DNA of 64,000 bases, from IMG/VR virus record IMGVR_UViG_3300025141_000022, positions 96,001 to 160,000 of that record; one strand, given 5' to 3'. This document shows positions 187 through 52,894 of this stretch, one piece after another (the stretch's first letter is position 1; each line of letters starts with the position of its first letter). The stretch comes from a virus. The notes beneath the pieces were generated by a model. It saw only the letters and a list, made by a program, of their open reading frames with translations. It made no database searches and was not told where the DNA came from. Position numbers and translations under genes: made by a program.

Positions 187-513
187 ATGAAAATTACAAA
201 AGCACAACTTAAGCGAATAATTTTAGAAGAACTTAAAGCCGTGACAGAACTTGACAAACTTGATGATCAGGATCCGACTGCAGAAAGGCCCCCGGAGTCC
301 ACCATGGATACATCAAAGATTGATCGAACTGGTGCCAAAGCTGGTGAAGAGATGCGTGACGTACAACTGGCAACAAAGTATTTGAAGAAAATCGACAACC
401 ATAAAGAATTCGGACAACTACTCGCAGCCGTTCTAAAGCATGCCGAACAAGATCCACAGATGCAGGCTGTTCTTAAAAGAATGTTTCAACGCCGTCGAGA
501 TGTGGGAGTATAG
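187..513 (+). CDS. Putative internal head protein with MKITK-type leader
   Basis: N-terminus MKITKAQLKRIILEE is shared with ORFs at 991, 1339 (internal) and 6311; AAGGA RBS upstream. Confidence 0.7.
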   Translation: MKITKAQLKRIILEELKAVTELDKLDDQDPTAERPPESTMDTSKIDRTGAKAGEEMRDVQLATKYLKKIDNHKEFGQLLAAVLKHAEQDPQMQAVLKRMFQRRRDVGV

Positions 514-523
514 GGAGAACACA

Positions 524-994
524 GTGGCTAAAAGAAAAAATGTAAAGAGAATTGACCCGAGATACTTTTTGGATGAAACAGTGCATAGAGGGCTGGATGA
601 AGGTGTCGTAAAAAAGCCCTTTGGAGACACCATGATCACGCACGACGATTATGAGCAGTCTGACGAGCCTCCTCGCGATGACACTGGTGAGCCGCCCCTC
701 ACACAACGCTCGCAACGTAAACTTAGCCACGATCATATGCTGGCAAGAATTAACGATGCAAAGCTATACCTCCAACAACAAGAGGACCCAGTTGCGTCAG
801 AACTCTCGCAGGAGCTTGATGGCGTAATACACACTATGGAGTTGCTAAATGATTATTTTATGGGTGATATGCCCGCAGACGCGAATCCATTGAGCCGAAG
901 ACCTCCCGGTGGAGGACTCGGTGGTCCGGGTAAAGGCCCCAGGCATATGCGCGGAGACTCGGGAGGCGGCTACCCAGAAGAGGAGATGTCGTGA
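524..994 (+). CDS. Putative internal head protein with DPRYFLxE leader (GTG start at 524)
   Basis: GGGAG RBS at 513-517, then GTG 524. The N-terminus AKRKNVKRIDPRYFLDE matches ORF 13199 (KNNKRRDPRYFLNE). Confidence 0.7.
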   Translation: MAKRKNVKRIDPRYFLDETVHRGLDEGVVKKPFGDTMITHDDYEQSDEPPRDDTGEPPLTQRSQRKLSHDHMLARINDAKLYLQQQEDPVASELSQELDGVIHTMELLNDYFMGDMPADANPLSRRPPGGGLGGPGKGPRHMRGDSGGGYPEEEMS

Positions 995-1704
995 AAATCA
1001 CAAAAGCAAAATTAAAAGAAATCATTATGGAAGAGATCGTTAAAGAGTCTCTAGATGATTATCATTTCGGTTTTGACCCAACACACAATCAGCCAAAAAT
1101 TAGTTCTGCTCAGGCAGCAGAAGAGGCGCTGTGGCACTGGTATGAAGAAGCGTTTATGAATAATGCGATGCCTCTTCTATTAGAATCATACCCCGAGGTT
1201 GCAGGTTATAGTCCATCTAATCCATCAGAGCTTCTTGATGTGCTATCAGATCTTAATCGACAATTTAAAGAAAATACAGTGGGCAGACACTCTCAGGAAG
1301 ACGATCCTATGATGAATGCACCAATGATGGAGAACAAAATGAAGATTACAAAAAAAGAATTTAGACAGATTGTCTTGGAAGAGTTGAGAGAGTGCATGTG
1401 TGATTCTGCACCTATTGTTGAGTACGAGACAGAAGAAGGCGAGATCGAAAGAATAGTAAACAAGTTACGTCAAGCTATGATGCACAAGTCAGAGCAAGAG
1501 GTAGGCCCGGCAGTTCAGGCCCTCAGAATGTTTATTGATTCTCTTGAAATGGCACAATCCGAGGAAGAGCTTGACCAGTTGGTACAAGACCTATCTGGCT
1601 CATCAGTACCAGAGTTTGAGGCGTCCCCAATAGTCGAAAGTACGATGCCGCTTGCGATGCTAAAAGAGGTCTTAAAGAGGCATTTTAGCACGCTTTTGAA
1701 ATAA
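991..1704 (+). CDS. Putative internal head protein with two MKITK-type leaders
   Basis: GTG start overlaps the upstream TGA. MKITKAKLKEIIMEE at the N-terminus and MKITKKEFRQIVLEE at 1339. Confidence 0.7.
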   Translation: MKITKAKLKEIIMEEIVKESLDDYHFGFDPTHNQPKISSAQAAEEALWHWYEEAFMNNAMPLLLESYPEVAGYSPSNPSELLDVLSDLNRQFKENTVGRHSQEDDPMMNAPMMENKMKITKKEFRQIVLEELRECMCDSAPIVEYETEEGEIERIVNKLRQAMMHKSEQEVGPAVQALRMFIDSLEMAQSEEELDQLVQDLSGSSVPEFEASPIVESTMPLAMLKEVLKRHFSTLLK

Positions 1705-1709
1705 AAATA

Positions 1710-1738
1710 TTGACATTATAACGTAACTGTGTTAATAT
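1710..1738 (+). promoter_or_regulatory. sigma70-type promoter (early/middle)
   Basis: TTGACA 1710-1715, 17-bp spacer, TGn-TAATAT 1733-1738, intergenic. Confidence 0.7.
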
Positions 1739-1762
1739 TTAGTTGTGAATTGCATCGAGGCC

Positions 1763-1855
1763 ATGCCGGCCAGCGCCCTGCTGGCTATTATTTGTAGTTA
1801 CCTAGCTATGTTTGCGCTAGGGTGGCTTATTGGCGTGTCCACTAAGGAGAGTTAA
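1763..1855 (+). CDS. 30-aa single-pass membrane peptide (not in the ORF track)
   Basis: GAGG 1757-1760, ATG 1763, MPASALLAIICSYLAMFALGWLIGVSTKES, TAA 1853-1855. It fills the gap between the promoter and the Mre11-Rad50 gene. Confidence 0.55.
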   Translation: MPASALLAIICSYLAMFALGWLIGVSTKES

Positions 1856-1856
1856 A

Positions 1857-4800
1857 TTGAAGTTCGCACACATTGCTGATACGCATATTAAAAATTTAAA
1901 ATATCATTATGAGTATAAGGTTGTTTTTGAACAACTCTATAAAAGACTAAAAGAAGAAAAAGTTGATTGCATCGTCCACTGTGGTGATATTGCACACACA
2001 AAGACACAGATTTCACCAGAGTTTGTGGAGTTGTGCTCTGACTTTTTTCGAAACCTTGAGTCAATCGCACCCACATATATTATTTTGGGAAACCACGATG
2101 GCAATCTAAAGAATAGTAGTCGCCAAGACGCACTTACGCCTATTGTGGAGGCTCTTGAATTGCCAAATCTTCATTTGCTGAAGAATTCTGGCGAGACACA
2201 TATCAACAATGATGTCTGCTTGAATGTTCTATCAGTATTTGACGAAGACAATTGGATGGCACCTACGGAGTCTGATAAAATTAATATTGCCCTTTACCAT
2301 GGTTCTATTTCTGGCGTAAAAACAGATATTGGATGGGTCATGGAACACGGAGAGCACGACATATCCATTTTCGATAAATTTGATTTTGCTTTTCTGGGAG
2401 ATATCCATAAAACAAATCAAGCCATAGATCGAGAAGGGAGGATACGCTATCCCGGTAGTACAATTCAGCAAAACCATGGAGAAACAAATGATAAGGGTAT
2501 TCTTATTTGGGACATCCACAACAAGCAAGACTGGGATGTATACCATATCGCATTTGAAAATCCAAAGCCGTTTGTCACAATTGAATTAACGCCAAAAGGA
2601 AGACTTAGAAAAAACAAAAAGATCCCCACCGGCGCACGTCTAAGACTAGTATCTAATAATAACCTGCCTTTAGATAAAATGAAGAAGGCCGTTGAAGTTG
2701 CAAAGCATAGATACAATCCAGAATCTATTACTTTTTTAAATCGCGCCGCAGGCTCAAGGGGAAATGTTGATGATTTGACTGGCAATATGATGAAGACCAA
2801 TCTTCGTGATATGGCTGTACAAGAAAAGTTTATTCGCGAATATCTGAAAGATTATGAACTTGAGGAAGGTGCCATACAAAAGGTGTTCGATCTGAACAAG
2901 AAGTATAATAAGCTTGTCGAAGACGGAGAAGAAGTTTCCAGAAATATTAATTGGAAATTGCAGTCGTTAGAGTGGGACAATCTATTTAACTACGGAAAGG
3001 GGAACCGAATTGGGTTTGATAAGTTAAATGGAATTGTTGGTATCTTTGGCAAAAATTATTCTGGTAAATCTTCTATCATTGATAGTGTATTGTATACCTT
3101 ATTCAATTCTACCTCAAAGAATGAACGTAAGAATCTTAATATTATTAACCAAAATTGCGATGTGGGGCGAGGAAGATTACGAATTAAAATCGGAGACGAA
3201 GAATACCAAATCGAGAGAACATCTGAAAAGTACATTAGAAAGCTTAAAGGAGAGACAACGCAGGAGGCAAAAACGGACCTAGAGTTTACAAGCACGAATA
3301 GAATTCTTGGCGAAGACAAGGTTCACAACGGCTTGACAAGAAACGAAACAGACAAGAATATTCGCAAAATGTTTGGAACACTAGATGACTTCTTGCTGAC
3401 TTCGATGGCCAGTCAAAATGAGTCCTTGGCCTTTATTAAAGAGGGTTCAACTCGACGCAAGGAAATTCTTGCTAAATTTTTAGATCTTGAAATATTTGAT
3501 AAGAAGTTCAAGATGGCCAAGGAGGACGTTGCAGATCTTCGCGGAGCTATCCGCCGCCTTCAAGGTCGCGATTTTGATGAAGACATCGATGTTGCATCGC
3601 AAGAACTGCTCATGGCCGAAGAAGAGATCGAGGTCCACAAGAAAGAGTGCCAAGACTGTGAGGTTACGATTGAGCAGCTAAAAGAAACGCTAAAGCTGGT
3701 TGAAGAAAAGATTTCTTCTATCCCGCAAGAAGTTATCGATATCGTTCAGGTAAAAGATGATTTTAATGCCAAACAAGAACAAACCACCTCGTTGAAGTCT
3801 AAAATTGAGGTACTATACGCTGATCGAAAGATCAAGCAAGAACTGTTCTCTAAAATTAATGATTTCACCAGCAAATATGATATCGATGAACTGAAAGATA
3901 AAAAGCAAAAAATTGATGAGATAGAGGAGTCGATAGAAAATGTCTTGGTCAGCTTACATCGAGAACAGCAAGAGCAGAGCCGTAATAAGAAAAAGGAACA
4001 GCTACTGAAAGAGCATGAATATGATCCCGACTGTACATATTGTTGTGAAAATAAGTTTGTCAAAGAGGCTCATGTTGCTGTAGCCAACATTGTGCTTAAT
4101 GAAAGGAAAATAAAGTCTTTCACGTTGAGTGTTGATTCTTACCGCGATGACCTTGAGGCAATGAAGCCGCAACAAGTTAGTGACCGAATTGACAAATATA
4201 ATCATATACTAGAAAGTAGAGCAGAGTTATCAAACGAAATAGCAAATTTGAATATTTCAATTGAGAGAAACAAGCTAGCTGCAGAAAGGACACAAAGGGA
4301 ATCAGCCGAACTACAAGAAAAGTTGGATTTATACGAAAAAAATAAAGAAGCCATCGAAAGTATGCAAAAGTTGATCAAACTCAGACAGGGCACGATGAAG
4401 AAGATAGATATTAATGCAGCTTCTTTAAAGGTTTGCCAAGAAGAATTGGCAGATTTGTATATGGCGCAAGGCTCGTGTGAGCAGAAGCTACAACACTTAG
4501 AGGATCTGAAGGAAGAGTTTGAGAACTTGCAAGAAGAGTATTCTGCCTATGACTTGTTCATGCGCAGCATGCACACTAGCGGAATTTCTTATGATATTAT
4601 CAAAAAGAAGTTGCCCGCAATTAATAATGAGATTGCTAAAGTATTAGCCAATGTTGTAAATTTTGAAGTCTTTTTTGAAGACGATGGCAAAAGACTCAAC
4701 ATCTTTATTAAACATCCACAATATGAGCCGCGCCCATTAGAGATGGGATCAGGTGCAGAAAAGTCTATCGCAGCTATGGCAATTCGACTGTCTTTACTTT

Positions 4801-5018
4801 CTGTGTCTAATTTACCAAAGGGCGATCTATTTATATTAGATGAACCCGGCACTGCCTTAGATGCCGACAACATGGAAGGATTTGTTAGAATTTTAGATAT
4901 GGTTAAGAATTACTACAAGACAGTGTTGTTGATTTCGCACATGGATACGCTAAAGGACGTGGCAGATGTTGTAATTGCAATAGAAAAGAAAGACGGATTT
5001 GCCAATGTCAACGTCTAA
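1857..5018 (+). CDS. Fused Mre11/SbcD (gp47) nuclease and Rad50/SbcC (gp46) ATPase
   Basis: TTG 1857 after an AAGGAG RBS. Phosphoesterase motifs HIADTH, HCGDIAH, ILGNHD, FLGDIH; Walker A GKNYSGKSS; CTYC zinc hook in coiled coil; signature MGSGAEK; Walker B FILDEP; H-loop LISH. Confidence 0.93.
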   Translation: MKFAHIADTHIKNLKYHYEYKVVFEQLYKRLKEEKVDCIVHCGDIAHTKTQISPEFVELCSDFFRNLESIAPTYIILGNHDGNLKNSSRQDALTPIVEALELPNLHLLKNSGETHINNDVCLNVLSVFDEDNWMAPTESDKINIALYHGSISGVKTDIGWVMEHGEHDISIFDKFDFAFLGDIHKTNQAIDREGRIRYPGSTIQQNHGETNDKGILIWDIHNKQDWDVYHIAFENPKPFVTIELTPKGRLRKNKKIPTGARLRLVSNNNLPLDKMKKAVEVAKHRYNPESITFLNRAAGSRGNVDDLTGNMMKTNLRDMAVQEKFIREYLKDYELEEGAIQKVFDLNKKYNKLVEDGEEVSRNINWKLQSLEWDNLFNYGKGNRIGFDKLNGIVGIFGKNYSGKSSIIDSVLYTLFNSTSKNERKNLNIINQNCDVGRGRLRIKIGDEEYQIERTSEKYIRKLKGETTQEAKTDLEFTSTNRILGEDKVHNGLTRNETDKNIRKMFGTLDDFLLTSMASQNESLAFIKEGSTRRKEILAKFLDLEIFDKKFKMAKEDVADLRGAIRRLQGRDFDEDIDVASQELLMAEEEIEVHKKECQDCEVTIEQLKETLKLVEEKISSIPQEVIDIVQVKDDFNAKQEQTTSLKSKIEVLYADRKIKQELFSKINDFTSKYDIDELKDKKQKIDEIEESIENVLVSLHREQQEQSRNKKKEQLLKEHEYDPDCTYCCENKFVKEAHVAVANIVLNERKIKSFTLSVDSYRDDLEAMKPQQVSDRIDKYNHILESRAELSNEIANLNISIERNKLAAERTQRESAELQEKLDLYEKNKEAIESMQKLIKLRQGTMKKIDINAASLKVCQEELADLYMAQGSCEQKLQHLEDLKEEFENLQEEYSAYDLFMRSMHTSGISYDIIKKKLPAINNEIAKVLANVVNFEVFFEDDGKRLNIFIKHPQYEPRPLEMGSGAEKSIAAMAIRLSLLSVSNLPKGDLFILDEPGTALDADNMEGFVRILDMVKNYYKTVLLISHMDTLKDVADVVIAIEKKDGFANVNV

Positions 5019-5256
5019 GAAGTATATTATCTTACCGTATGATGGAAATGAACAGAGATTAAGCTTAGAAAACGTTGAAACAAAATTAACAACTCACGTT
5101 AAGATGGATGACATCCATAAATTTTTAAGATATGTCCACTCGCTTGAGGATCTTGCGTTCGCTGTAAAAGATTTAGAATACGAAAAATATAAAAAATACT
5201 TCAATAAAATCGAGAATGTTAATTTTTGTTATGCAATACCCGCCGAGAAGGACTAA
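4999..5256 (+). CDS. Hypothetical protein
   Basis: 85-aa ORF overlapping the upstream stop; no recognised motif. Confidence 0.55.
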   Translation: MPMSTSKKYIILPYDGNEQRLSLENVETKLTTHVKMDDIHKFLRYVHSLEDLAFAVKDLEYEKYKKYFNKIENVNFCYAIPAEKD

Positions 5257-5259
5257 TTA
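5252..5259 (+). promoter_or_regulatory. Putative phage late promoter (aCTAnTTA)
   Basis: ACTAATTA 22 bp before the lysis-like cassette; the same motif recurs before most structural operons. Confidence 0.6.
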
Positions 5260-5280
5260 TAGTATACTTTTGGAGGTATA

Positions 5281-5472
5281 GTGATGAAAAAAGGATATTT
5301 AGATAAAATAATGGAGAGAGTAATCTCTCGTAAATTATTCACATTCTTAACCGCAACTGGACTTATGTTGTGGTCTGATTTGGCATCAGAAACCTGGGGT
5401 ATGATTGCGATGGTGTACATCGGAACTCAGGGTGCGATTGACGCTATGAAGGCGTATAGGCACGGAGAATAG
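5281..5472 (+). CDS. Holin-like small membrane protein
   Basis: 63 aa with an SRKL motif followed by two hydrophobic helices; GGAGG RBS; adjacent GTG/ATG start codons. Confidence 0.55.
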   Translation: MMKKGYLDKIMERVISRKLFTFLTATGLMLWSDLASETWGMIAMVYIGTQGAIDAMKAYRHGE

Positions 5473-5473
5473 A

Positions 5474-5878
5474 ATGACTTGGCTAGCATTTACAGTTGCT
5501 ATGAAAAAGGCATGGGTTTGGTGCAAGCACCATTGGAAGATTGTAGCCATTGGTATTTGGACCTTGGTTGTGTATTTGATTGCGCGTGGAAACGTGCGTA
5601 ATTATAAAAAAGTTCTTGAGCAAACGATTAAAAGCTATGAGGCTGAGCGGGATGCAGTAGACAAAACATATCAAGAAGAACTTGATAGAAGAAATCAGGC
5701 GCTTAAAAAACACAATGAGGCGCTGAGACTTTTAGAAGAAAAATACAGCAACGCTGAGGAAGAGCTATCTTATGAAAAAAGAGCGAGGTTTACAGAATTG
5801 ATGAAAATGCACGATGAAGATCCGCAAACAATTAATGAATTGCTTCAGAGGGAGTTTGGGTTTACTTATGTGGAATAA
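5474..5878 (+). CDS. Membrane-anchored coiled-coil protein, i-spanin (Rz)-like
   Basis: N-terminal TM segment (IVAIGIWTLVVYLIA) followed by about 90 aa of charged heptad-like sequence; follows the holin-like gene. Confidence 0.5.
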   Translation: MTWLAFTVAMKKAWVWCKHHWKIVAIGIWTLVVYLIARGNVRNYKKVLEQTIKSYEAERDAVDKTYQEELDRRNQALKKHNEALRLLEEKYSNAEEELSYEKRARFTELMKMHDEDPQTINELLQREFGFTYVE

Positions 5879-6314
5879 ATTTTTAGCAATATTTCTAAGC
5901 TTTAATCTTGCAGTACCGATGACAGCGTTTGCAGAAGATCCTCAATTTACCAATTTGGAAATAGGAGAGGCGGCGCCTTTTGCTGGAACTTTGTTCAACC
6001 CAGCGGCTGTATCTGAGTTGATAGTTGATAGTCAATTTTCTATGGATGAGTGTGATTTACGCATACAATTTGAAAAAGATCGGATCGCAGCACAATACCA
6101 ACTGCAGTTGGACATTTTACAAGCTAGTTATGATGGTTTACAAGAAAGGCACACTCTTTTGATGGACATCAAGCAAGAAGAAATTGATACTTATAGGGAT
6201 ATGGCCCTAGAGAGGCCAAATCGGAACAACCATTGGTGGCTAGCCGGTGGCGTCCTATCGGGTATTGGATTAACAATAGGAGTCCTTTGGGCCACACAGG
6301 AGATACAACAATGA
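5868..6314 (+). CDS. Exported protein with signal peptide, coiled coil and C-terminal TM helix
   Basis: ATG 5868 overlaps the upstream gene. Signal peptide MWNKFLAIFLSFNLAVPMTAFA/EDP; C-terminal WWLAGGVLSGIGLTIGVLWA. Confidence 0.6.
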   Translation: MWNKFLAIFLSFNLAVPMTAFAEDPQFTNLEIGEAAPFAGTLFNPAAVSELIVDSQFSMDECDLRIQFEKDRIAAQYQLQLDILQASYDGLQERHTLLMDIKQEEIDTYRDMALERPNRNNHWWLAGGVLSGIGLTIGVLWATQEIQQ

Positions 6315-6631
6315 AAATATCAAAAGGTAGATTAAAGCAACTTATCATGGAAGAGATGAGCTATATAGAAGAGGGCGGAGAAGCCGGCCACTTAGAGCCC
6401 GTGCGCTCATTTGATAGACTCTTTGAAAAAGGCGCCGCTGGTGACGTTTTTGCAGAAGCTGTAGCAAATGAGTTAATGCTAGATGAAGAAGAAGATTTTC
6501 TGGCTATGCGAGGTAGCATTCAACGTGCGTTGGTAGATTGGTATAGACGCCATCAAAGTCAGAGATATCCAACCGGCGCCACCCCTGGTGCCCCGATGCA
6601 AGAAACTAACAAGAAAAAGCGTGGGAAATGA
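6311..6631 (+). CDS. Putative internal head protein with MKISK-type leader (ATG 6311)
   Basis: AGGAG RBS at 6298-6302; N-terminus MKISKGRLKQLIMEE. Confidence 0.7.
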   Translation: MKISKGRLKQLIMEEMSYIEEGGEAGHLEPVRSFDRLFEKGAAGDVFAEAVANELMLDEEEDFLAMRGSIQRALVDWYRRHQSQRYPTGATPGAPMQETNKKKRGK

Positions 6632-7023: not shown

Positions 7024-7026
7024 ATA

Positions 7027-7581: not shown

Positions 7582-7779
7582 ATGGTCTTAGAAGAGTTGC
7601 AAGAAATTATCAATGCTCTCTCAAAAGCCGCCGGTGATGCAGATAAGTTTGACAATAAGAACAATGCATCTGCAGGCCGCCGCGTTCGAAAAGCCGCAAT
7701 GGAAGCAATTAAAGATTTGCGAGCATTAAGAAAGAGTGTTATTGAGGAATTAAACGAAAGAAAAGAAGACAAAGAATAG
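7582..7779 (+). CDS. Histone H1-like Hc1-family small DNA-binding protein
   Basis: DADKFDNKNNASAGRRVRKAAMEAIKDLRALRKSV resembles the Hc1 core pattern (K.EKGNKAA..R.RK.S..L.K..K..RK.S) of Chlamydia and Bacteroidota. Confidence 0.7.
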   Translation: MVLEELQEIINALSKAAGDADKFDNKNNASAGRRVRKAAMEAIKDLRALRKSVIEELNERKEDKE

Positions 7780-7789
7780 TTAGTGTACA

Positions 7790-9379: not shown

Positions 9380-9387
9380 AATAAAAA

Positions 9388-12753: not shown

Positions 12754-12763
12754 CGGAGTGTAG

Positions 12764-13102: not shown

Positions 13103-13206
13103 CGAAGTGGATGCTTCAACCAGTTAGACACTGTTGCAAAGGCAAGATAATCACGCGGGTAGCGCCCGCACATTTTTTTAATAAACGGAGATACAGTAAT
13201 GAGTAG
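13081..13206 (+). CDS. 41-aa basic peptide with CC motif (not in the ORF track)
   Basis: GGAGG RBS 13068-13072, ATG 13081, MKRQTWTAKWMLQPVRHCCKGKIITRVAPAHFFNKRRYSNE, TAG 13204-13206. Confidence 0.45.
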   Translation: MKRQTWTAKWMLQPVRHCCKGKIITRVAPAHFFNKRRYSNE

Positions 13207-13747
13207 ATGGGGAAAACCAACCAAAAATAACAAGAGAAGAGATCCAAGATACTTCTTGAACGAACAAGAGGAAAAGGAAGCACAGCGCGATCCATCAGGT
13301 GGCGCCCCAGCTGCCCAATTGGATGAAAAAGAAGTTCTACCACTAATCCAAAGCTTCTATAAGGCTATGCGCGCAGCCCGCGATGGGGTGCAATCTTCCC
13401 GTAAAGCTTTAGGCGATGACTGGGTTAAAAAACAAGCCCAAAAATATTCCCAAAGAGCCGGCGATCAAGAACAAAATCTTAAGATGTGGTTTCAAACCAC
13501 GGTGGGCGACGGCATGTGGCGCGCCGCTCGTGCCATGGCTCCTGTTTATGCTGACATTAGAAAAGGCGCCCGAGGATCTGCTAACTCGATAGATATCATC
13601 GCACACCATGCTGGCGACATGGCAGAGAAATTTTTGCAACAAACAAAGGGCATGAAAGCCAAAATGGCATTTCTAGAACAATTTGACGAGTTAACCAAAG
13701 AGTATTTTGAAAACACTGAGAGATTTGGAAAGGGACACATACTGTGA
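13199..13747 (+). CDS. Putative internal head protein with DPRYFLxE leader
   Basis: MSRWGKPTKNNKRRDPRYFLNE; CGGAG RBS; lies directly upstream of the prohead protease. Confidence 0.7.
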   Translation: MSRWGKPTKNNKRRDPRYFLNEQEEKEAQRDPSGGAPAAQLDEKEVLPLIQSFYKAMRAARDGVQSSRKALGDDWVKKQAQKYSQRAGDQEQNLKMWFQTTVGDGMWRAARAMAPVYADIRKGARGSANSIDIIAHHAGDMAEKFLQQTKGMKAKMAFLEQFDELTKEYFENTERFGKGHIL

Positions 13748-14352
13748 AAGTACTTTTACGAGAATACTATGAATTATGTGAAGGCGGTGTTTGCCAAGAT
13801 CTTTTAACTGAAGATGAAAAGAGATATGTGGCAAACGGCGGCTTAATTTTGACTGGAAAACTACAAGAAGCAGATGTGCAAAACGGGAACGGCCGTGTGT
13901 ATCCGCAAAGAGTATTACAGAGAGAAATGCAAAATTACCAAAAACTTGTAAAAGAAAGAAGAGCCCTTGGAGAGTTAGATCATCCTGAAGATTCAGTTAT
14001 TAACCTTAAGAACGCATCTCATATGGTTACAGAGGTGTGGTGGGATGGTTCTGCGGTTATGGGTAAAGTTAAAGTTTTAAATACGCCATCTGGCAAAATA
14101 TTACAAGAATTAGTGAGTGATGGTGTTAAGCTGGGAATTTCGTCCCGTGGCTTGGGATCTGTTAGCGAATCACAAGGGAGAACAATTGTCGAAGACGATT
14201 TCACATTAATCTGTTTTGACTTCGTATCAGAACCATCAACGCCAAATGCATTTATGCTTAAAGAAAATAAGAATGCGCCAAATATTTTTACCAAAGCAGA
14301 CAAAATCAATCGCGCATTAAACGACATATTGGGAGATTATGACAATGAGTAA
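13744..14352 (+). CDS. gp21: Prohead core protease (T4 gp21-like)
   Basis: QEADVQNGNGRVYP, ALGELDHP, LGISSRGLGS, FDFVSEPSTPNA. Confidence 0.95.
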   Translation: MKVLLREYYELCEGGVCQDLLTEDEKRYVANGGLILTGKLQEADVQNGNGRVYPQRVLQREMQNYQKLVKERRALGELDHPEDSVINLKNASHMVTEVWWDGSAVMGKVKVLNTPSGKILQELVSDGVKLGISSRGLGSVSESQGRTIVEDDFTLICFDFVSEPSTPNAFMLKENKNAPNIFTKADKINRALNDILGDYDNE

Positions 14353-15361
14353 AAAGAACTTTTCTTCATATGATGATATTCATAGGCTACATGAAGGATT
14401 TAGAAAATGGATAGGTGAGGAACGTGGACCCCCCTCCCCGCTTGGATCCGAAGAAGATGATTCGGGGATTGCTGCCGATGTTGAGCAGGCATATAAATCC
14501 GGCCCAGCATCCGTCCGCGCTTTCATGAACACACCAGAAGGTTCAGATCCGAAAGTTAGACAATTCTTGCATCGAGCACAAGCTGAATATGACGGTTCGG
14601 CATCGGACGACGATATTTCAATCTCGCAGGATGGTGCTAAATCTTTGATGGATATGGTTCCGACTCAAAAATATATTGACCTTATGCAGTCGGTATCCTT
14701 TCCTTTGGGAAGTGTCGGCACTCTTAAAAAGGCAATCGAATCTAAGAAGGGTTTTGGCCCAATTTCGGTTTCGGACCAGTACGTCCTAGATGGACACCAT
14801 CGTTGGTCGGGCCAGTTTGCAATTACGCCAGACGGAACGATCTCGGCTACTAACATCTCGCTCCCTGGAGATGCCCAGCAAAAATTAGCTTCGCTGCAGC
14901 TAGCAATTGCAGCTATTGATCCAAATGCGAAAGATCCGCACCCATCTAAAGGCGGCAGCGCTGCAACGAATATATTAGGAAAAGGCGCCAAAGAGATTTA
15001 CAAAAAGATTTTGGCCAACGTTAACAACCAGACTGATAAAAAGGCCCCCGGCCCACTCCTGAATGATGCCATGATTTCTGAAATTGCACAGTCTCAGGAT
15101 CCAGTTATTTTACAATGGGCGGGCTTGAAGCCTGGACAGGCGACTGAGCCCCAGCAGATCAGAGACGCAATTGCTCAAAGGGTAGCTAATAATCTAGCAC
15201 AGCTTCCCAATTTTGCTGCCGGTGCCCCTGATCGCCCCGACATGCCTCAGCTAGATCATGATTCGATTGGTGGTGCAAAAGGATACCAAAAGATTAAAAG
15301 CCGCCTCGCAACAGGCGATCTAAATGTTGTACCTCCGTTTGATAAAGGAAAGACAGGATAG
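14345..15361 (+). CDS. ParB/Srx-like domain protein, possibly virion-internal
   Basis: YVLDGHHRW motif preceded by MVPTQKYIDL; N-terminal FRKWIGEE resembles the W/F-K-x-F/W-I-x-E leaders. Confidence 0.6.
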   Translation: MSKKNFSSYDDIHRLHEGFRKWIGEERGPPSPLGSEEDDSGIAADVEQAYKSGPASVRAFMNTPEGSDPKVRQFLHRAQAEYDGSASDDDISISQDGAKSLMDMVPTQKYIDLMQSVSFPLGSVGTLKKAIESKKGFGPISVSDQYVLDGHHRWSGQFAITPDGTISATNISLPGDAQQKLASLQLAIAAIDPNAKDPHPSKGGSAATNILGKGAKEIYKKILANVNNQTDKKAPGPLLNDAMISEIAQSQDPVILQWAGLKPGQATEPQQIRDAIAQRVANNLAQLPNFAAGAPDRPDMPQLDHDSIGGAKGYQKIKSRLATGDLNVVPPFDKGKTG

Positions 15362-22150: not shown

Positions 22151-23254
22151 ATGTCATCAATGTTACAGCAGGCTATTATAGACGCATCGGCCTTAAGAGA
22201 GGCCGCCGTTAAAAACGCAGAAGCCGCTATTATTGAAAAGTACACACACGAAATTAAGAATGCCGTAGATTCCCTTTTGGAACAAGAGGAAGAATTAGGG
22301 CTAGAAGAAGATCCTTTGGCTATGGAAGAGCCTGGAGCCGAAGAAGCTCCTGCCGCAGTTCCCGAAGCCCCAGCGGCGCACACCGAGGGAGAAAATCTTT
22401 GCCCCTGCCCAGAAGATGAGGAGGAAGTGGAGATTGTTTTTGATGAGTTGGCAAGCCAATTTGCTGCAGAACAGGATGTTGGCAAGTCTCATGAAGAGTT
22501 AGCCGGCGGCATTCCACAAGCCGCGCCCCCTACACCTCTAGGAGAGGGCAATAAGAAGGAAGAAGAAGTTGTCGAAGAAGAATTAGTCGAAGAAGGCGAC
22601 GAAAATGTCGAAATCTCAGAGGAGCTATTAAAAAGTGTTATTTTTGAACTCACTGAAGACGAAAATGTTGAACTAGATGACGACAAGGTTAAAGAAATAG
22701 CAGAAAAGCTAGCTGTAGATATTAAAGTTGTGCCAAATGCACCAAATGCAGCCGCTCAGTTTACACCATCTGGCGAACAAGAGCATGCAGCCGACTTAGA
22801 ATTGGCCGCTCAGCAAGATGACGAGTTAGCTGAAGAAAACGACGAACTCAAGAAAGCTGTAAAAGAACTTGAGGAAAATATTAAAGATTTAAAAACTGAA
22901 AACAAGAGATATAAAGATACTGTTTTGCAATTAAAGGATAAATTTGACGAAGTGAATCTTTCAAATGCAAAACTACTATATACGAACCGAGTATTGGAAA
23001 GCACCTCCTTGAATGAGCGACAAAAAGAACAAATTGTCGAAACTCTTTCAAATGCCAGTTCGATTAGCGAGGCGAAGGTTATTTTTGAAACACTTCAAAG
23101 CACAGTGGGAGCTTCTACTAAGAAAACTCCACAATCACTGAGCGAAGCTGTGACAAGAGGAGCCTCAACCATGCTGCCTAGAAGGCAAAAAAGACAAAAT
23201 GTTAACGATCCAACAACGACTAGATGGAGACAACTAGCCGGGATCGAAAAATAA
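22151..23254 (+). CDS. Prohead core scaffold protein (gp22-like)
   Basis: Highly acidic with many L/I-x-E sites, coiled coil, C-terminal RWRQLAGI, immediately upstream of the capsid gene. Confidence 0.8.
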   Translation: MSSMLQQAIIDASALREAAVKNAEAAIIEKYTHEIKNAVDSLLEQEEELGLEEDPLAMEEPGAEEAPAAVPEAPAAHTEGENLCPCPEDEEEVEIVFDELASQFAAEQDVGKSHEELAGGIPQAAPPTPLGEGNKKEEEVVEEELVEEGDENVEISEELLKSVIFELTEDENVELDDDKVKEIAEKLAVDIKVVPNAPNAAAQFTPSGEQEHAADLELAAQQDDELAEENDELKKAVKELEENIKDLKTENKRYKDTVLQLKDKFDEVNLSNAKLLYTNRVLESTSLNERQKEQIVETLSNASSISEAKVIFETLQSTVGASTKKTPQSLSEAVTRGASTMLPRRQKRQNVNDPTTTRWRQLAGIEK

Positions 23255-23271: not shown

Positions 23272-25131
23272 ATGTCTGTATTAGAACGTTTGACAGAAGG
23301 TATCGTTGAACGCAATCTTGGCCAGGAAGGTGCTGCTCTACTTAAGAAGTGGGAAAGAACCGGACTGCTTGAGGGTGTTCGTAACGATCATGAAAAACAA
23401 ACAATGGCTCGCTTGCTTGAAAATCAAGCTAGAGAGCTTCTACGCGAATCTTCTACCATGGCCGCTGGCGATGTTGAAGGTTTTGCAGCCGTTGCATTTC
23501 CGATTGTTCGGCGTGTATTCGGTGGCTTGATTGCTAACGATCTCGTTAGTGTTCAGCCAATGAGCCTCCCATCGGGACTTATCTTCTTCCTAGATTTTAA
23601 GTATTCCCCAGATGCTGGTGGCAACGCCAGTGGTGGTGATTTCCCCCGTGTCGGTGTCAATGAGGATACATCACTTTATGGTGGTGGCCGAGTTGGTGCT
23701 CAGATCACAGGTGGTGTTGATCTAACTCCATCTGGTTCAACAGTTGCAGGTGCTGGCGCTTCACGCGATCACAGTTTCTACAACTTAGGTTCAGGTTACT
23801 CTAGCCCAACGGCTTCGGTTGACTTGACCATCACTTGTATCGCATCCGGTACTCTCGGAGCAGTTACTTCTAGTAACATGGTGTCCTTGACACATGCTTC
23901 TATTGGTGCTAGCACCGTTACAACCTCTCTTGAGGAGCTTTGCCGATACGATCCAGATCTTTCTGGTTCCGTCGTCACAGTTTGTACAGCACCCGGTGTT
24001 GCTGGCTTAAGCCAGATGAACCGCCTCAACTTAATCGCAATGCAACCCGCTCAGGGTGATGAGATTGATGTTGGTAAGGCTAAGTTGGTTCGTCGTCTGA
24101 CTCACCTTCGTGGTAAGTCTGCTGCTGCAGCTACAACTTCACCTGAAGGTCTGTCTCTAATCAACGCAACCGACACATCTCTTGTGTTCGTTTTCGAAGG
24201 TGGAACAGGTCTGAACGAGGGCGCAGTTGCTGGTGAGACAACTGGTACCATGACGGTCGATTTCCCAATTGATGATGACTTCATTGCAGGTCCATCCGTT
24301 GGTTCGGTTGTTGGTGATGCTACATGGGGACTGGAAGCCAATCCAGACATCCCAGAGATTGACATCGACGTTAGTTCGGTGGCTATCACTGCGATGACCA
24401 AGAAGCTCAAGGCTAAGTGGTCACCAGAGTTGGGGCAGGATCTTAACGCCTACCACAACTTGGATGCAGAGGTTGAGCTAACTGGTATTCTTTCTGAGCA
24501 AGTTGCTCTTGAAATTGATCGTGAGATTCTCAACGATCTTGTTCAGGGTGCTGCTGCCGGAACTTATTACTGGTCACGCCGCCCCGGTCGATTCACCGAC
24601 CGTGTTACTGGTAGACACATTAATGTCCTAGGTGAAGGTACTTCAGCTACGGATGTCGGTGGACCTGAGTTCACTGGTAATGTGTCTGAGTGGTATGAGA
24701 CACTTGTTGAGACAATCAACGATGTTTCCGCTCAAATTCATCGTAAGACTCTACGCGGTGGAGCTAACTTCTTGGTGGTTTCCCCAGAAGTTGCTAACAT
24801 CCTTGAGTTCACAAGTGGATTCCGCGCTAGCGTAACCCATGATGATGATAAGGGCTCTGTTGGAGCAGTTAAGGCTGGCTCTATTTCTAAGAAGTGGGAC
24901 GTTTGGGTTGACCCATACTTCCCCCGCAATGTGATCCTTGTTGGTCGTCGCGGAAGCAGCTTCCTAGAAAGCGGCTATGTTTACGCTCCATATGTACCAC
25001 TACAGATGACTCCCACCATCTTTGGACCAGAGGACTTCGTGCCCCGTAAGGGCGTGATGACTCGCTATGCCAAGAAGATGGTACGTCCAGATATGTATGG
25101 TGTAGTCGTTGTCCAGAACTTGTTAGGCTAG
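23272..25131 (+). CDS. gp23: Major capsid protein (T4 gp23-like), 619 aa from ATG 23272
   Basis: LVSVQPMSLPSGLIFFLDF, KKLKAKWSPELGQDLNAYHNLDAEVEL, EIDREIL, YAPYVPL, PRKGVMTRYA; AGGAG RBS. Confidence 0.97.
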   Translation: MSVLERLTEGIVERNLGQEGAALLKKWERTGLLEGVRNDHEKQTMARLLENQARELLRESSTMAAGDVEGFAAVAFPIVRRVFGGLIANDLVSVQPMSLPSGLIFFLDFKYSPDAGGNASGGDFPRVGVNEDTSLYGGGRVGAQITGGVDLTPSGSTVAGAGASRDHSFYNLGSGYSSPTASVDLTITCIASGTLGAVTSSNMVSLTHASIGASTVTTSLEELCRYDPDLSGSVVTVCTAPGVAGLSQMNRLNLIAMQPAQGDEIDVGKAKLVRRLTHLRGKSAAAATTSPEGLSLINATDTSLVFVFEGGTGLNEGAVAGETTGTMTVDFPIDDDFIAGPSVGSVVGDATWGLEANPDIPEIDIDVSSVAITAMTKKLKAKWSPELGQDLNAYHNLDAEVELTGILSEQVALEIDREILNDLVQGAAAGTYYWSRRPGRFTDRVTGRHINVLGEGTSATDVGGPEFTGNVSEWYETLVETINDVSAQIHRKTLRGGANFLVVSPEVANILEFTSGFRASVTHDDDKGSVGAVKAGSISKKWDVWVDPYFPRNVILVGRRGSSFLESGYVYAPYVPLQMTPTIFGPEDFVPRKGVMTRYAKKMVRPDMYGVVVVQNLLG

Positions 25132-47976: not shown

Positions 47977-48922
47977 TGCTTTGAACATGTATTTCAGAGC
48001 GTATATTGTAGATCCAAGTTTGTCTACAAATGGCCAACCAATTGGCGGCATTAAAGGGTTTACTAAGATTCTACAAAAACAGATTCGTGAAAGCAAGCCT
48101 GACGAAGTGATTATATGTTGGGATGGCCAAGGCGGCTCTCAAAGGAGGAAGGCTCAAAACAAGGGCTATAAAGAAGGCCGAAAGCCAATTCGCCTTAATC
48201 GCGAAATTAGAAACCTTTCTGAGAATGAAGAAGTCGCAAACAAAGTTTGGCAGCAGACAAGGCTCATTGAATATTTGAACAACTTGTCCATTATTCAGTT
48301 GATGTTACCGGGGGTAGAGGCCGATGACATCATTAGCTATGTCTGCCAGATGCCGCATTATGCAGATTGGCAAAAAGTGATTGTGTCTTCAGATAAAGAC
48401 TTTATCCAACTTTGTGACGACACTACTGTTCTCTATCGGCCAATCCAGAAGCAGGTTCTGAACTCCACTCGGATTGTTGAAGATTATGGAATACATCCAG
48501 TTAATTTTGCCATGGCCCGCGCCATTGCTGGAGATAAGTCTGACAACCTCCCTGGAGTCGGTGGTGTTGGCTTGCCAACTATCGCTAAGAGGCTTCCATT
48601 TCTAAAAGAAAATAAAACTTACACAATTGATGACATTACTAATTACTGTAAGGAAGTCGAAAGCAATCTTAAGGTATACAGCACCATTCTTGAAAAAAGA
48701 GATTTGATTCATGACAATTACAAAATTATGCAACTGTACGCACCCTCTATCAGTCCACAGGGCAAAAACAAGGTAAAGTATGATGTTGAAAATTTTGTTT
48801 TTGAATTGAATCAGACAGAAATCAAGAAGATGATGATAGAAGATGGTTTCGGCGCTCTAGATCTAACTGATTTGTTTACAGCCATGAAAAGAATTGTGGC
48901 TGAGAGCAAAAAAACAAACTAA
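47954..48922 (+). CDS. 5'-3' exonuclease / flap endonuclease (T4 RNase H-like)
   Basis: LLIIDALN, CWDGQGGS, GVEADDII, SSDKDFIQL, GDKSDNLPGVGGVG (H3TH motif). Confidence 0.93.
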   Translation: MKRLLIIDALNMYFRAYIVDPSLSTNGQPIGGIKGFTKILQKQIRESKPDEVIICWDGQGGSQRRKAQNKGYKEGRKPIRLNREIRNLSENEEVANKVWQQTRLIEYLNNLSIIQLMLPGVEADDIISYVCQMPHYADWQKVIVSSDKDFIQLCDDTTVLYRPIQKQVLNSTRIVEDYGIHPVNFAMARAIAGDKSDNLPGVGGVGLPTIAKRLPFLKENKTYTIDDITNYCKEVESNLKVYSTILEKRDLIHDNYKIMQLYAPSISPQGKNKVKYDVENFVFELNQTEIKKMMIEDGFGALDLTDLFTAMKRIVAESKKTN

Positions 48923-48925
48923 TTA
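48918..48925 (+). promoter_or_regulatory. Putative late promoter inside the replication region
   Basis: ACTAATTA overlapping the exonuclease stop, 5 bp before ATG 48931. Confidence 0.5.
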
Positions 48926-48930: not shown

Positions 48931-49761
48931 ATGATGGACGCTTTTCTAGATAAATGGAAATCATATAAAACTGCCGACTTCGAACTGAAAGAACTTGTAG
49001 ACCCTGAATCGGTAGCTACCTCGTCCTTTGAGGTACAGGATAGTCTACATTCCGCTTTTTGGTCAACTGAGGGCAAACTGGACCCAAAAGTTCGAAAACG
49101 ACTAATCAGAATAGCTAAGAACTTTATTAAGGACTTGGAACTTTCCGAACTTGAGATAGAAGACCTGACATTTACAGGATCACTAGCGAACTACAACTGG
49201 TCTAAATATTCAGATATAGACTTGCACATAATTGTTGATTTTTCAGCCCTTGAGGGTGACCAAGAGTTACTCAATAATTACTTTAATGCTAAGAGAGCGT
49301 ATTGGAACATGAAGCACGCGATTATGATGCATGACTTCGAAGTGGAAATATACGTTCAAGATTCCAACGAACCACATACGGCATCCGGCTTATACTCCGT
49401 ATACTTTGATGAATGGATCAATACGCCGCAAAAACAAGACCCCGTTATCGATCACACAAATATAAAGGTTAAAGCAGCTGCCTTGATGGATCAGATAGAC
49501 ACAGCACAAGAAATGTTCAATGACGGCGCGTACAAAAAGGTTATTGAGTATGTTGAAAAATTGCGAGAAAAAATTAAGAAATTTAGAACCTCTGGTTTAA
49601 ATAATGGTGGCGAATACTCTATAGAAAATTTAGCATTTAAAGCTTTACGAAGAAATGGGTATTTAGGTAAACTATCGGATTTGAGAATTGCGTCATATGA
49701 TGAATTGATGTCTCTACATCCCGAAATGATAACCATATTAGTTGGGGAGGATGCAGGATGA
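48931..49761 (+). CDS. Pol-beta-superfamily nucleotidyltransferase
   Basis: FTGSLANYNWSKYSDIDLHI (GS...DxD) and EVEIYVQD third acidic site. Confidence 0.85.
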   Translation: MMDAFLDKWKSYKTADFELKELVDPESVATSSFEVQDSLHSAFWSTEGKLDPKVRKRLIRIAKNFIKDLELSELEIEDLTFTGSLANYNWSKYSDIDLHIIVDFSALEGDQELLNNYFNAKRAYWNMKHAIMMHDFEVEIYVQDSNEPHTASGLYSVYFDEWINTPQKQDPVIDHTNIKVKAAALMDQIDTAQEMFNDGAYKKVIEYVEKLREKIKKFRTSGLNNGGEYSIENLAFKALRRNGYLGKLSDLRIASYDELMSLHPEMITILVGEDAG

Positions 49762-50369
49762 ATAAAAAGTGGAAAAACTTCATTAATGAAAAAGTTTGGG
49801 CCGATTACGAAGAGCCCAAAGGTCAATGGAAAGACGTACCATTATCAGATCTTGAACACGATCCCGATGAATATGATTTAACTGACGAAATGTATAACCT
49901 AATTGCCACAGCATATGCTAAAATCGGCGGTCATGTAAATATTAAAGGCCCAGCAGATGTTCCAGATAAATATGATCAGTGGTCAGCGGTCGATTTGGAT
50001 GGTGATCCTGAACCTGACGCTTTGCGAGTGGCATCAACCAAGCCGGCCGGAACAAAACTTACGGTTTCGGGCCACGATGGTACTCGTATAGCAAAAAATG
50101 CCTACACTGACAAAACTGCAGACATGCTTAAGAAGGATGGATATTTCGCGGAGATGTCTGACGCCATCGCGCACATTATGATTACCAGATACAATATCGA
50201 GTCGGTCAACGATAAAGAAACAGTCGAGAAAGTTTTAGGCAAATCGGTCGATTGGGTCGGCCCTCACCCAGAGGGTAAATACCCAGAGCACACCGGGTGG
50301 TATGTTCGTAAGTTGAGCGGCAAGGTTAGTCACATGAAGATTATGCTTGGAAAGCCAAAGGTAGGATAA
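49758..50369 (+). CDS. Putative internal head protein with KWKNFINE leader
   Basis: N-terminus MNKKWKNFINE; GGAGG RBS. Confidence 0.65.
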   Translation: MNKKWKNFINEKVWADYEEPKGQWKDVPLSDLEHDPDEYDLTDEMYNLIATAYAKIGGHVNIKGPADVPDKYDQWSAVDLDGDPEPDALRVASTKPAGTKLTVSGHDGTRIAKNAYTDKTADMLKKDGYFAEMSDAIAHIMITRYNIESVNDKETVEKVLGKSVDWVGPHPEGKYPEHTGWYVRKLSGKVSHMKIMLGKPKVG

Positions 50370-50371
50370 AT

Positions 50372-52894
50372 ATGAATATTAACAAATGGCGTAATTTCCT
50401 GAATGAAAAGAAGGAGCGCCTCCTAAGAGAAATTACAGAAGACGAGATGGAACATATTCGTGACGCTCTCGACAATATGGACAGCGGCGAAGACTTAGCT
50501 TTTTCAGAGTTGTTTGGCGACAGGACAAGAATTGTTCTCGACTTTAAAACAGCAGATAGCGAAAGCGAGTTGGGAAGATTTATTAACCTTTTTGACGTGC
50601 TTGGATACGAAGTCGATTGGCAGAAAGGACTAATATCAGCGACAAAAACATTGCAAAACACAAGCCCAGGAGGTATGTCCGACCGCATGCTCGCCATGAC
50701 ACATGGTGGTACTGGTGGCAAGGAGGATAGACAACGAAAGATCCAGATGAAGATCGGAAAGTTCTTCGCAAAGATTTATGATTTAGCCACAAAACAAAAG
50801 AAACTAGTTGATCAGGTTTTCAATTCTAAAGAAGCAGCGAGCCTCAAGGCTCAATATTCAACCACCGTAACAGGCGAAATGGACTGGTGGAAAAATAAAC
50901 AAGCAAGGCACCTGACAGGCAACCACATCGAGGCTGGCTTAGGAGAAGAGTTGGCAGCTAGGCACTATCAGCTATACGATCAGTTGAATATGTACGTTGG
51001 CATTGACTATGGAAATGCTTTTGTAAGAGATCCATCCAGAGCAAAGAATTATATGGAGTACTGGCAAAAGAATGCCGGATACATCAAGAAGAATATAGAC
51101 AAAGCCACAAGTAATGAATACTCTATTGTTGTCACTAGGCACCCTGTTGATATTTTGCGCATGAGCGACTTTAACGCCATCCAATCTTGTCATTCGCCAC
51201 CATCTAGAGGAGGTGGAGCACACTATGAGTATTACAAATGTGCAGTAGCCGAAGCTCATGGCCATGGCGCTGTGGCTTATGTGCTCAACACAGAAGACTT
51301 GTTGCACGCTACAAATACTAGTAATATAGACAGCGCAGAACAGGAGATCCAAGATGGTGAACTTTTTGCAGATGATGTCAGAGGTAGCCACGTTGGAGCC
51401 AGCATGGATCTAACACCAATATCTCGTTTGCGGCTAAGACAAGTTAGACATTACGCATCAGATGATGTTCTTAACTCTCAAATGGGTATGGGCACGCAGA
51501 TAGCCGTGCCTGAAATGCGTATCTATGGTGAGAAGATTCCTGGTTTCAGGCAACGCATCATGAAATGGGCGAGAGAGAACCAAGAGCAGGCACTCGCCAA
51601 CGCCCCTAAAAGAGATGGCAGAATTGATCTGGGCCGATTCATTAAGTTTGGTGGCTCACAAGAGGACAACCAAATTGCTACTCTTCTCGGAGATTTGTAT
51701 GGACACGGAAGGCTTCCGCCGGCGGCACAGAAACAGGTATTTATTGGCAATATTATTAAAGATACTCGCACCGAAGACAATTTGGATGTTAATCTTGTTG
51801 GCGGCATCTTAGAACAGTATGAACAAGCCTGCGCAGAGATAACAGATGAGTGGAACAATAGAATGCAGGCTTGCGAGGTTGAAGCTAGAGTCGAAGACGA
51901 TGGTGGCGGCAGCGTTTACATTGCCCTATATGCTTCCATGATTATCAAGTGGGACGAAGACGATTTTATCGGACTGCCAAATTATATGGACTCGCAATAT
52001 GCAGTTGGCGAACTAAATGATATAGGATACAGTTGGTTTGAAGACAAGGGTATCAGATCCCAAGTTTCTTATAAACGTTCCCAAGGTGAGGACTTCCACA
52101 AGACATACATTATGCAGAAAATGGACATCGAAGCTGAAATGATACCTGAAATGGCGCAGCAAGCCTATGCTTATGACCCCGATGGGTTTGAGGATTTCTG
52201 TGTCGAGGTTAACAAAATTGATGACATGTACGATGGCATTAAAGAATACCTTGAGCGCTATTATAAGCGCGAGGGCTATATGGCTGGCGGTCAATTCATG
52301 AAGCTGGCATTGAATATTGAACATGGTGACCTTGATCCAGATTTCTGGGAAGTTGAGCTTGACGATCCATATGATCCAGAAGAAGCATATGAAGCCATGG
52401 CAAAAGTAAACTTGGAATTGGATCCCGGCTTGTATGTGATGGCATCTGGGTTTCCAATGACACCCGAAGATATGGTAAATGTATTGAACTCCCGAGAGTT
52501 CAGAACCAAGTTCCGCACAGAAGTACTAAAAGAGCCTATGAAATATGTGGGCACAGAAATGTTCTTATCCCTTCACGATGACACCAAAGCTAGTGTAGGC
52601 CGTCAGGTCAGCGCCGATGGATCTGGACGGACCAGCAAGATGTCTAATGCTGTTGACTTCGACTTTGTTATTAAGGTTACACAAGACGATCCCGAGATAT
52701 TAACTAAGGTTTTTGCACGGACTGTTGAGTATATGGACGATGAAGGCGAATTTTATGATCTCGCCAACCAAACTATAAAGGGTATAATGAGAGATCAGGT
52801 TCGTGATCGATACGCGGATCCCAAAGAGGAACCCCAAGGACTTTCCGAGTCTCATAAAGTAATGAACAGTTGGAGAAAGTTTTTAAATGGCTAA
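50372..52894 (+). CDS. 840-aa hypothetical protein with leader motif at both ends
   Basis: N-terminal MNINKWRNFLNE; C-terminal LSESHKVMNSWRKFLNG. Confidence 0.7.
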   Translation: MNINKWRNFLNEKKERLLREITEDEMEHIRDALDNMDSGEDLAFSELFGDRTRIVLDFKTADSESELGRFINLFDVLGYEVDWQKGLISATKTLQNTSPGGMSDRMLAMTHGGTGGKEDRQRKIQMKIGKFFAKIYDLATKQKKLVDQVFNSKEAASLKAQYSTTVTGEMDWWKNKQARHLTGNHIEAGLGEELAARHYQLYDQLNMYVGIDYGNAFVRDPSRAKNYMEYWQKNAGYIKKNIDKATSNEYSIVVTRHPVDILRMSDFNAIQSCHSPPSRGGGAHYEYYKCAVAEAHGHGAVAYVLNTEDLLHATNTSNIDSAEQEIQDGELFADDVRGSHVGASMDLTPISRLRLRQVRHYASDDVLNSQMGMGTQIAVPEMRIYGEKIPGFRQRIMKWARENQEQALANAPKRDGRIDLGRFIKFGGSQEDNQIATLLGDLYGHGRLPPAAQKQVFIGNIIKDTRTEDNLDVNLVGGILEQYEQACAEITDEWNNRMQACEVEARVEDDGGGSVYIALYASMIIKWDEDDFIGLPNYMDSQYAVGELNDIGYSWFEDKGIRSQVSYKRSQGEDFHKTYIMQKMDIEAEMIPEMAQQAYAYDPDGFEDFCVEVNKIDDMYDGIKEYLERYYKREGYMAGGQFMKLALNIEHGDLDPDFWEVELDDPYDPEEAYEAMAKVNLELDPGLYVMASGFPMTPEDMVNVLNSREFRTKFRTEVLKEPMKYVGTEMFLSLHDDTKASVGRQVSADGSGRTSKMSNAVDFDFVIKVTQDDPEILTKVFARTVEYMDDEGEFYDLANQTIKGIMRDQVRDRYADPKEEPQGLSESHKVMNSWRKFLNG

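Follow-up and report, generated by a model that had tools for sequence, protein, structure and literature searches.

The 64,000-nucleotide stretch of viral DNA analyzed here (hereafter the window) spans bases 96001-160000 of IMG/VR record IMGVR_UViG_3300025141_000022, a single contig of 184,913 bp from an uncultured marine phage. It contains several genes whose otherwise unrelated products begin with one of three short, conserved N-terminal leaders, which we refer to as families A, B, and C. Matches to the T4-type portal (Portal_T4, E 3e-76), to the gp23 family of major capsid proteins (Table 1) and to large terminases place the phage among those with a T4-type head module. The top match of the large terminase encoded in the window is Flavobacterium phage immuto (46% identity, phage collection), and no close cultured relative of the window phage was found in that collection. 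A preliminary description of the window had named eight leader-bearing starts and interpreted the leaders as targeting tags that address cargo proteins to the phage head, with the three families acting as a code of parallel addresses. Our analysis supports one part of this interpretation indirectly, as the leaders appear to be portable N-terminal modules tied to the head protease, but it does not support the three-address code.

The leaders are present at all eight of the named starts. A six-frame regular-expression scan of the whole genome finds family A at 187, 991, 1339, and 6311 only and family B at 524 and 13199 only, while family C occurs in the window at 49758 and 50372 and has six further N-terminal members outside of it (genome positions 90738, 91736, 92347, 93140, 93712, and 175237), five of which form a tandem array just upstream of the window (genome 90738-94548). 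Every leader in the genome is N-terminal except the one at 1339. The preliminary description had counted this one as a gene in its own right; the leader is indeed there, but it lies in frame inside the open reading frame (ORF) 991-1704, at residue 117 of the protein we call A2, with a GGAG sequence 8 nt upstream. Nine ORFs in related phages carry a double leader analogous to that of A2, and some of the internal copies have no Met, as would suit an endoprotease site but not a signal dependent on a free N-terminus. In an all-against-all BLASTP comparison, similarity between leader proteins is limited to the first 13–21 residues, with the exception of the A1-A2 pair, which aligns over 44 N-terminal residues.

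For family C, a profile built from the eight members returns those eight at E<1e-4 and the next best match at only E 0.3; the recovery of the members by their own profile is circular, but the gap is not. The two window members score weakly (6–8 bits) with a profile built solely from other phages, and their assignment is supported by their mutual likeness and by an orthologue of the 840-aa protein in a related locus (L086), which has 37% overall identity and an identical 7-residue core. Two weaker family C members that had been suggested at 14345 and 48931 give no significant leader-profile score, and we no longer count them. The 840-aa protein also ends, directly before its stop codon, in a leader-like peptide (52862-52891) in which the Trp core is present and the final Glu is absent; this peptide may be what is left of a leader gene once located downstream, and similar truncated leader copies are seen in two relatives (L022, L025). 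Outside the window, a 1094-aa orphan (L002:11956-15240, genome 171956-175240) has a weak C-like start, a late-type promoter, and no Pfam family, and lies directly upstream of a leader-bearing deoxyribonucleotidase gene. Neither of these two large family-C-type proteins gave a lead in Pfam, PHROGs, PDB, or Atlas.

The leaders are widespread in related phages. The exact degenerate family A pattern matches at least 120 IMG/VR contigs, often in clusters of 2–5 together, where by our own estimate about 1e-4 matches would be expected by chance; it is clear that the leaders occur far beyond chance. Hidden Markov models of the leaders, an idea of the preliminary description, were run as local profiles on 1.08 Mb of contigs from related viruses; with the leaders of this genome included, they recovered 272 A, 22 B, and 39 C leader ORFs, the B and C counts being subject to ascertainment bias since the contigs were fetched via family A alone. 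All three families co-occur within one phage group.

What is conserved in these leaders is the peptide. Across 266 distinct DNA copies of the leader, residues M1, K2, L8, I11, I12, E14, and E15 are 94–100% conserved, the third codon positions of the conserved residues vary freely (Leu8 is encoded by at least four codons from two codon families), and the upstream DNA is unconserved apart from the ribosome site. Selection on the leader acts at the peptide level. The motif given in the preliminary description holds but is too short, as the amphipathic pattern runs on to about residue 22, where it gives way to a stretch rich in Gly, Glu, Asp, and Pro.

The bodies that follow the leaders are extremely diverse. 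BLAST groups the 333 leader ORFs into 275 body clusters, 247 of which are singletons, and among 69 representative leader proteins two have a Pfam family and one a PHROG. The bodies in this genome include a kinase-like protein and a 5'-3' deoxyribonucleotidase. Leaders are nearly obligatory on their bodies: upon inspection of 39 homologous ORFs that had no strict leader, most turned out to have a degenerate leader or to be cut by the edge of the locus, and a minority had none at all. Which family of leader a body carries is, however, not fixed. Leader families are mixed within five body clusters, and the body of B1, which has a family B leader in this genome, is ~86% identical to ORFs from the related loci L060 and L083, where the leader is of family A; the homology begins a few residues past the leader. 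Since the leader on homologous bodies belongs to family A, B, or C depending on the phage, the idea of three different addresses is disfavored; the three families seem to be interchangeable, and look equivalent rather than sent to different places.

The preliminary description had also noted that the leaders end in I/L-x-E, and this is borne out by the related leader sets, in which the Glu is invariant and preceded two residues earlier by L, I, V, or M. We call the third residue ahead of the cut P3. Glu14 is present in 99% of the family A copies and I/V/L at P3 in 100%, family B has Glu in 100% and M/L at P3 in 100%, and family C has Glu in 88% and L/I/V at P3 in 95%, compared to a background rate of 1.85% per residue. 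L/I-x-E is the established specificity of the T4 prohead protease gp21 (PMC9026906). The protein at 13744, which had been proposed as a gp21 homologue, is 34% identical to T4 gp21 (E 1e-26, BLASTP) and matches PDB entry 5JBL with E 3e-19. At the two positions where wild-type T4 gp21 and the 5JBL chain are not the same, the window protein has His and Ser; we take this chain to be an inactive crystal construct in which the catalytic His and Ser were replaced. These alignments identify it as a true gp21 homologue that retains the catalytic His and Ser. The major capsid protein is consistent with such an activity: in an N-terminal alignment of eight capsid proteins, the experimentally known cleavage site of T4 gp23 falls on a conserved (L/I/V)-x-E with A or S as the next residue, and the maturation cut of the window capsid protein is predicted after Glu59 (codon 23446-23448), which aligns to the Glu65 site of T4.

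If the bodies meet a protease that cuts at L/I-x-E and have to survive it, they should avoid [L/I]-x-E. In 275 non-redundant bodies (33,184 residues) the observed over expected ratio of this motif is 0.90 (bootstrap 95% interval 0.80–0.99), with the expected count preserving composition protein by protein, vs. 1.28 in controls, with 1.27 and 1.30 for large and small non-leader proteins, respectively, from the same contigs; for comparison, the ratio is 1.17 in the T4 proteome and 1.26 in this genome. All 1000 length-matched control sets had ratios of 1.09 or more. Closely related motifs are not depleted in the bodies ([L/I]-x-D 1.34, [L/I]-x-Q 1.28, [L/I]-x-K 1.24, [V/M/F]-x-E 1.04), and a P3-specific deficit is seen for both residues (L 0.86 vs. 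1.38, I 0.96 vs. 1.21). The bodies of each family give ratios of 0.93 (A), 0.73 (B), and 0.83 (C), and the deficit persists after trimming 25 more residues and masking acidic runs. The reverse is found in three parts of the head module: the scaffold-like protein has 17 [L/I]-x-E sites vs. 9.0 expected, the protein encoded at 15364 has 7 vs. 1.9, and the capsid propeptide has 5 vs. 2.0. Enrichment of this kind is to be expected of parts that are degraded. In the bodies of related loci L003-L122, [L/I]-x-D and [L/I]-x-Q are also more frequent than in controls (~1.3 vs. ~1.0), as though another residue had taken the place of Glu at that position.

Many leader genes lie in variable slots next to the protease gene. 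Homologues of 12184, 12764, the protease, 15364, and 16076 occur in conserved order in 31 protease-bearing related loci, and each of the three gaps around the protease holds 0–4 genes, with 0–3 detected leader genes per gap; certain of these gaps also contain sequence unaccounted for by the detected leaders. In the window, the slots flanking the protease are occupied by the family B gene at 13199 (B2) and by an orphan gene at 14339, for which a homologue was found in 0 of 120 loci and whose weak family-C-like N-terminus is unsupported by the profile. A terminator-like hairpin lies near B2 (13155-13169). One slot upstream of the protease there is always a conserved 104-aa membrane-like protein (12764-13078; DUF1360, weak match), seen in 37 related loci. 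The family A gene A4 is placed between two conserved genes (5814-6314 and 6628-7023).

The protein encoded at 15364 had been listed as a variant family A cargo, and this assignment has to be withdrawn, as it is a conserved head-module protein with orthologues in 20 loci whose N-terminus merely resembles family A (hhalign E 3e-4, probability 40%). AlphaFold2 predicts a helix at residues 3–39, disorder, a helix at 59–89, and disorder (predicted template modeling score, pTM, 0.22), and from this scaffold- or core-like build it is probably a component of the prohead core. We considered it as a relative of T4 gp67 or gp68, and profile comparison shows no relation.

Table 1. Leader genes, head-module genes, and candidate promoter elements in the window (positions in the window).
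Feature	Position	Strand	Remarks
A1, family A leader gene, 108 aa	187..513	+	leader ~187-252; orphan body; independent profile iE 2e-9
B1, family B leader gene, 156 aa, GTG start	524..994	+	leader 524-577; independent profile iE 4e-11
A2, two-module protein, 237 aa, GTG start	991..1704	+	family A leaders 991-1035 and 1339-1383
A4, family A leader gene, 106 aa	6311..6631	+	independent profile iE 3e-6
B2, family B leader gene, 182 aa, basic	13199..13747	+	leader 13199-13264; variable slot just upstream of protease
Prohead protease, gp21 family	13744..14352	+	phrog_207 E 2e-54
Orphan, 340 aa, downstream slot of protease	14339..15361	+	slot holds A or C leader genes in relatives
Conserved helical/disordered head-module protein, 143 aa	15364..15795	+	orthologues in 20 loci
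Scaffold-like acidic protein	22151..23254	+	upstream of capsid gene; preceded by late-type motif
Major capsid protein, gp23 family	23272..25131	+	Pfam Gp23 E 5e-70
Candidate late-type promoter motif	48919..48925	+	12 nt before operon 48931-52894
Further late-type motif copies	starts 5253, 16026, 30903, 32633, 46830		
Family C leader gene, 203 aa	49758..50369	+	leader 49758-49790; independent profile weak
Family C leader gene, 840-aa orphan	50372..52894	+	leader 50372-50407; orthologue in L086 keeps core

For the first gene in Table 1, A1, no Pfam or PHROG family scored above threshold. Two large ORFs of the window deserve mention in their own right. The 1062-aa ORF at 1830-5018 encodes an Mre11-like phosphoesterase fused to a Rad50/SMC-like ATPase, a fusion kept in 33 related loci at ~55% identity; the T4 counterparts of the two parts are the separate genes 47 and 46. 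The 1151-aa ORF at 60393-63848 has a PHP-type N-terminus and, judged from its N-terminal sequence, resembles a polymerase of the Pol III alpha type and not of the T4 gp43 type.

A candidate late promoter can also be proposed for the leader genes. The motif ACTA[A/T]TTA(T) occurs genome-wide 48 times on the + strand vs. 6 times on the - strand, with 21 copies no more than 60 nt from gene starts. It is found upstream of the tail tube, sheath, and scaffold-like genes, the family C array, and the 48931-52894 operon, as well as upstream of the 1094-aa gene that heads the deoxyribonucleotidase operon, so that leader genes are apparently served by the same late-type promoter as these tail and head genes. 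The motif differs from the late box of T4. The helicase and neighboring genes are preceded by clear sigma-70-like promoters, and a TTGACA-17-TAATAT site lies directly after the A1-B1-A2 block; the frequency of sigma-70-like sites in 1-16600 is not above that of shuffled sequence.

The closest known parallel is the set of internal proteins of T-even phages. Their capsid targeting sequence (CTS), that of Ip1-3, and the polymorphic ip hotspot are reportedly described in work by Mullaney and Black in 1996 and Repoila et al. in 1994. The T-even internal proteins are unrelated to one another except for a common N-terminal leader, which guides them to the inside of the prohead core and is cleaved off by gp21; the ip genes are located in a hotspot and act against restriction systems (PMC3012670, PMC9026906, PMC12373910). 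Here too a short N-terminal leader is the sole similarity between unrelated small proteins, it ends in the cut motif of the phage's own gp21-type protease (with cleavage at this site predicted), and the genes lie in variable hotspots of a phage with a T4-type head module. The two systems differ in that there are three interchangeable leader families of 12–22 residues here and one in the T-even phages, 10 residues long in the T4 Ip proteins, in the number of body families (hundreds vs. about ten), in the location of the hotspots, which flank the protease gene here, and in the mostly acidic character of the bodies. By every sequence-level criterion tested, the leaders resemble the T-even CTS system without being its sequence relatives, and what we see is most likely a greatly expanded counterpart of it.

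Other propeptides are less similar. Those that gp21 removes from T4 Alt, gp24, gp23, gp67, and gp68 have the hydrophobic-x-Glu site in common with the leaders, and the capsid site is conserved and the core-like proteins are rich in sites in the window phage as well, but each of these T4 proteins is a single conserved protein and does not represent a portable tag on unrelated bodies. By eye, family C resembles the start of the T4 capsid protein as well as gp67; this resemblance is not significant, and the spacing from Trp to Glu differs. In the giant phages phiKZ and SPN3US, a diverged gp21 homologue processes many head-internal proteins, ejection and inner-body proteins, by cutting an N-terminal propeptide after Glu (PMC5694885, PMC10052503), with another residue at P3 and no common portable leader described; those cases rest on mass spectrometry, while the cleavage of the leaders described here is predicted from sequence.

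Among other phages, the leader profiles give one weak A-like match in immuto and six in a 484-kb phage, and none in Microcystis phage Mel-JY01 or a Synechococcus T4-like phage. A tblastn search with 22–25-residue leaders against 50,697 phage records, a method too insensitive for such short queries, returned one weak match in the 484-kb phage and a self-match of immuto. Immuto (L133), which is cultured on Flavobacterium sp. LMO8, has leader families of its own, with four genes of an FDLKKFLVE type, two of an RMQKLAGIITE type, and three that are A-like, and its protease is followed directly by a 75-aa gene with a C-like start. The occurrence of similar leaders in Cellulophaga phages with proteomics was not confirmed.

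The mechanism we consider most likely, with somewhat more confidence than doubt, is that of targeting to the core and subsequent cleavage, with the bodies retained in the head. The leaders would be interchangeable N-terminal propeptides that dock a large and fast-changing set of accessory proteins onto the core of the assembling prohead, the gp21-type protease would remove them after the invariant Glu of the hydrophobic-x-Glu site, and the bodies would stay inside the head once the leader is gone. We infer binding to the core, leader cleavage, and retention in the virion from the observations above, and more weakly the ejection of the bodies into the host and their functions in anti-defence or takeover. 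A broader version, in which a clade of uncultured marine phages with T4-type heads uses several interchangeable leaders to bring hundreds of unrelated effector families into the capsid, with cargo that has evolved to avoid the cut motif and with immuto and the 484-kb phage as distant participants, is a possibility that we put forward tentatively and hold to be rather doubtful as a whole.

Several observations weigh against targeting and retention. The nearest isolate, immuto, is just 46% identical in the large terminase, and no proteomics was found for it. Against the six-frame translated T4 genome the A, B, and C profiles give nothing above 6 bits (the best in a real gene being 4 bits, to gp67), and the T4 ip genes are not among the 14 best matches listed for each leader profile. 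The bodies are mostly acidic (median isoelectric point 5.1), while the internal proteins of T4 are basic; certain of them are enzymes that would be expected to act in the infected cell, such as the 5'-3' deoxyribonucleotidase; and both family C genes of the window are located in the replication region. Motif avoidance is a signal at the population level, with the 10 bodies of this genome giving a ratio of 1.12 from too few proteins, and the ascertainment of the B and C counts has been noted above. In a distant homologue of the 840-aa protein (L092, 27% identical) the start still resembles a leader, but Gln stands in place of both the Leu and the final Glu, and the hydrophobic-x-Glu site is thereby lost.

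Some of these observations would be accommodated if the leaders were docking helices for a partner outside of the capsid, such as a chaperone, a membrane site, or a hub of replication or transcription, with no proteolysis and with hydrophobic-x-Glu being merely a part of the amphipathic helix. The leaders are indeed amphipathic and helix-like, homology to the T4 tag is absent, there are nucleotide-metabolism or kinase-like enzymes among the bodies, and two family C genes sit among replication genes. Such docking would, however, leave unexplained why [L/I]-x-E is selectively lost while D, Q, and K are kept at the same position, why leader genes cluster beside the protease gene, and why they share late-type promoters with tail and head genes, and we regard it as fairly unlikely. 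The same avoidance bears on the case in which the leaders do reach the prohead and its protease and the proteins are disposable accessories of the core or scaffold, degraded or expelled before DNA packaging instead of being carried to the next host. The helical or disordered, cut-site-rich proteins encoded at 15364 and 22151 show what such accessories might look like, and many bodies are small and acidic as are T4 gp67 and gp68. The cut motif is nevertheless under-represented in the bodies, whereas the scaffold-like proteins are enriched in it; certain of the bodies are enzymes or a kinase-like protein, and their extreme diversity and turnover suit accessory effectors better than structural parts, so that disposal seems distinctly unlikely.

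The two further explanations do not invoke the head at all. Were the leaders N-terminal degradation tags (N-motifs of the ClpXP type or similar) that limit the lifetime of accessory proteins, one could point to several family C starts that fit Met-basic-three hydrophobics-x5-hydrophobic, a pattern from the ClpX literature. The window members of family C and families A and B do not fit it, the conserved core of family C consists of the Trp and the final Glu and not of the start, internal in-frame copies without a free N-terminus are conserved, and the link to the protease gene would go unexplained, all of which makes degradation tags very improbable. Finally, the shared starts could be recombination or translation-start cassettes that shuffle genes at the DNA level, with the peptide as a by-product. 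Leader swaps, the remnant at 52862-52891, and the truncated copies in relatives do show that recombination takes place at or near the leaders, but the residues are invariant while their synonymous codons vary freely and the upstream DNA is unconserved, which rules out a DNA cassette as the main explanation; we give it almost no credence.

If targeting to the prohead core followed by cleavage and retention is correct, abundant marine phages would have, in the delivery of proteins along with the DNA, a major and modular route for their accessory functions, well beyond the roughly ten internal proteins of the T-even phages. The leaders would then flag candidate injected effectors, for instance with anti-defence or host takeover functions, among what is otherwise sequence “dark matter,” and the three interchangeable tags would be new tools with which to package foreign proteins. 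The test for [L/I]-x-E avoidance provides a sequence-only route to asking which proteins meet a prohead protease, and, if the mechanism holds, motif avoidance could be used more generally to recognize, by computation, the packaged proteins that are exposed to the protease.

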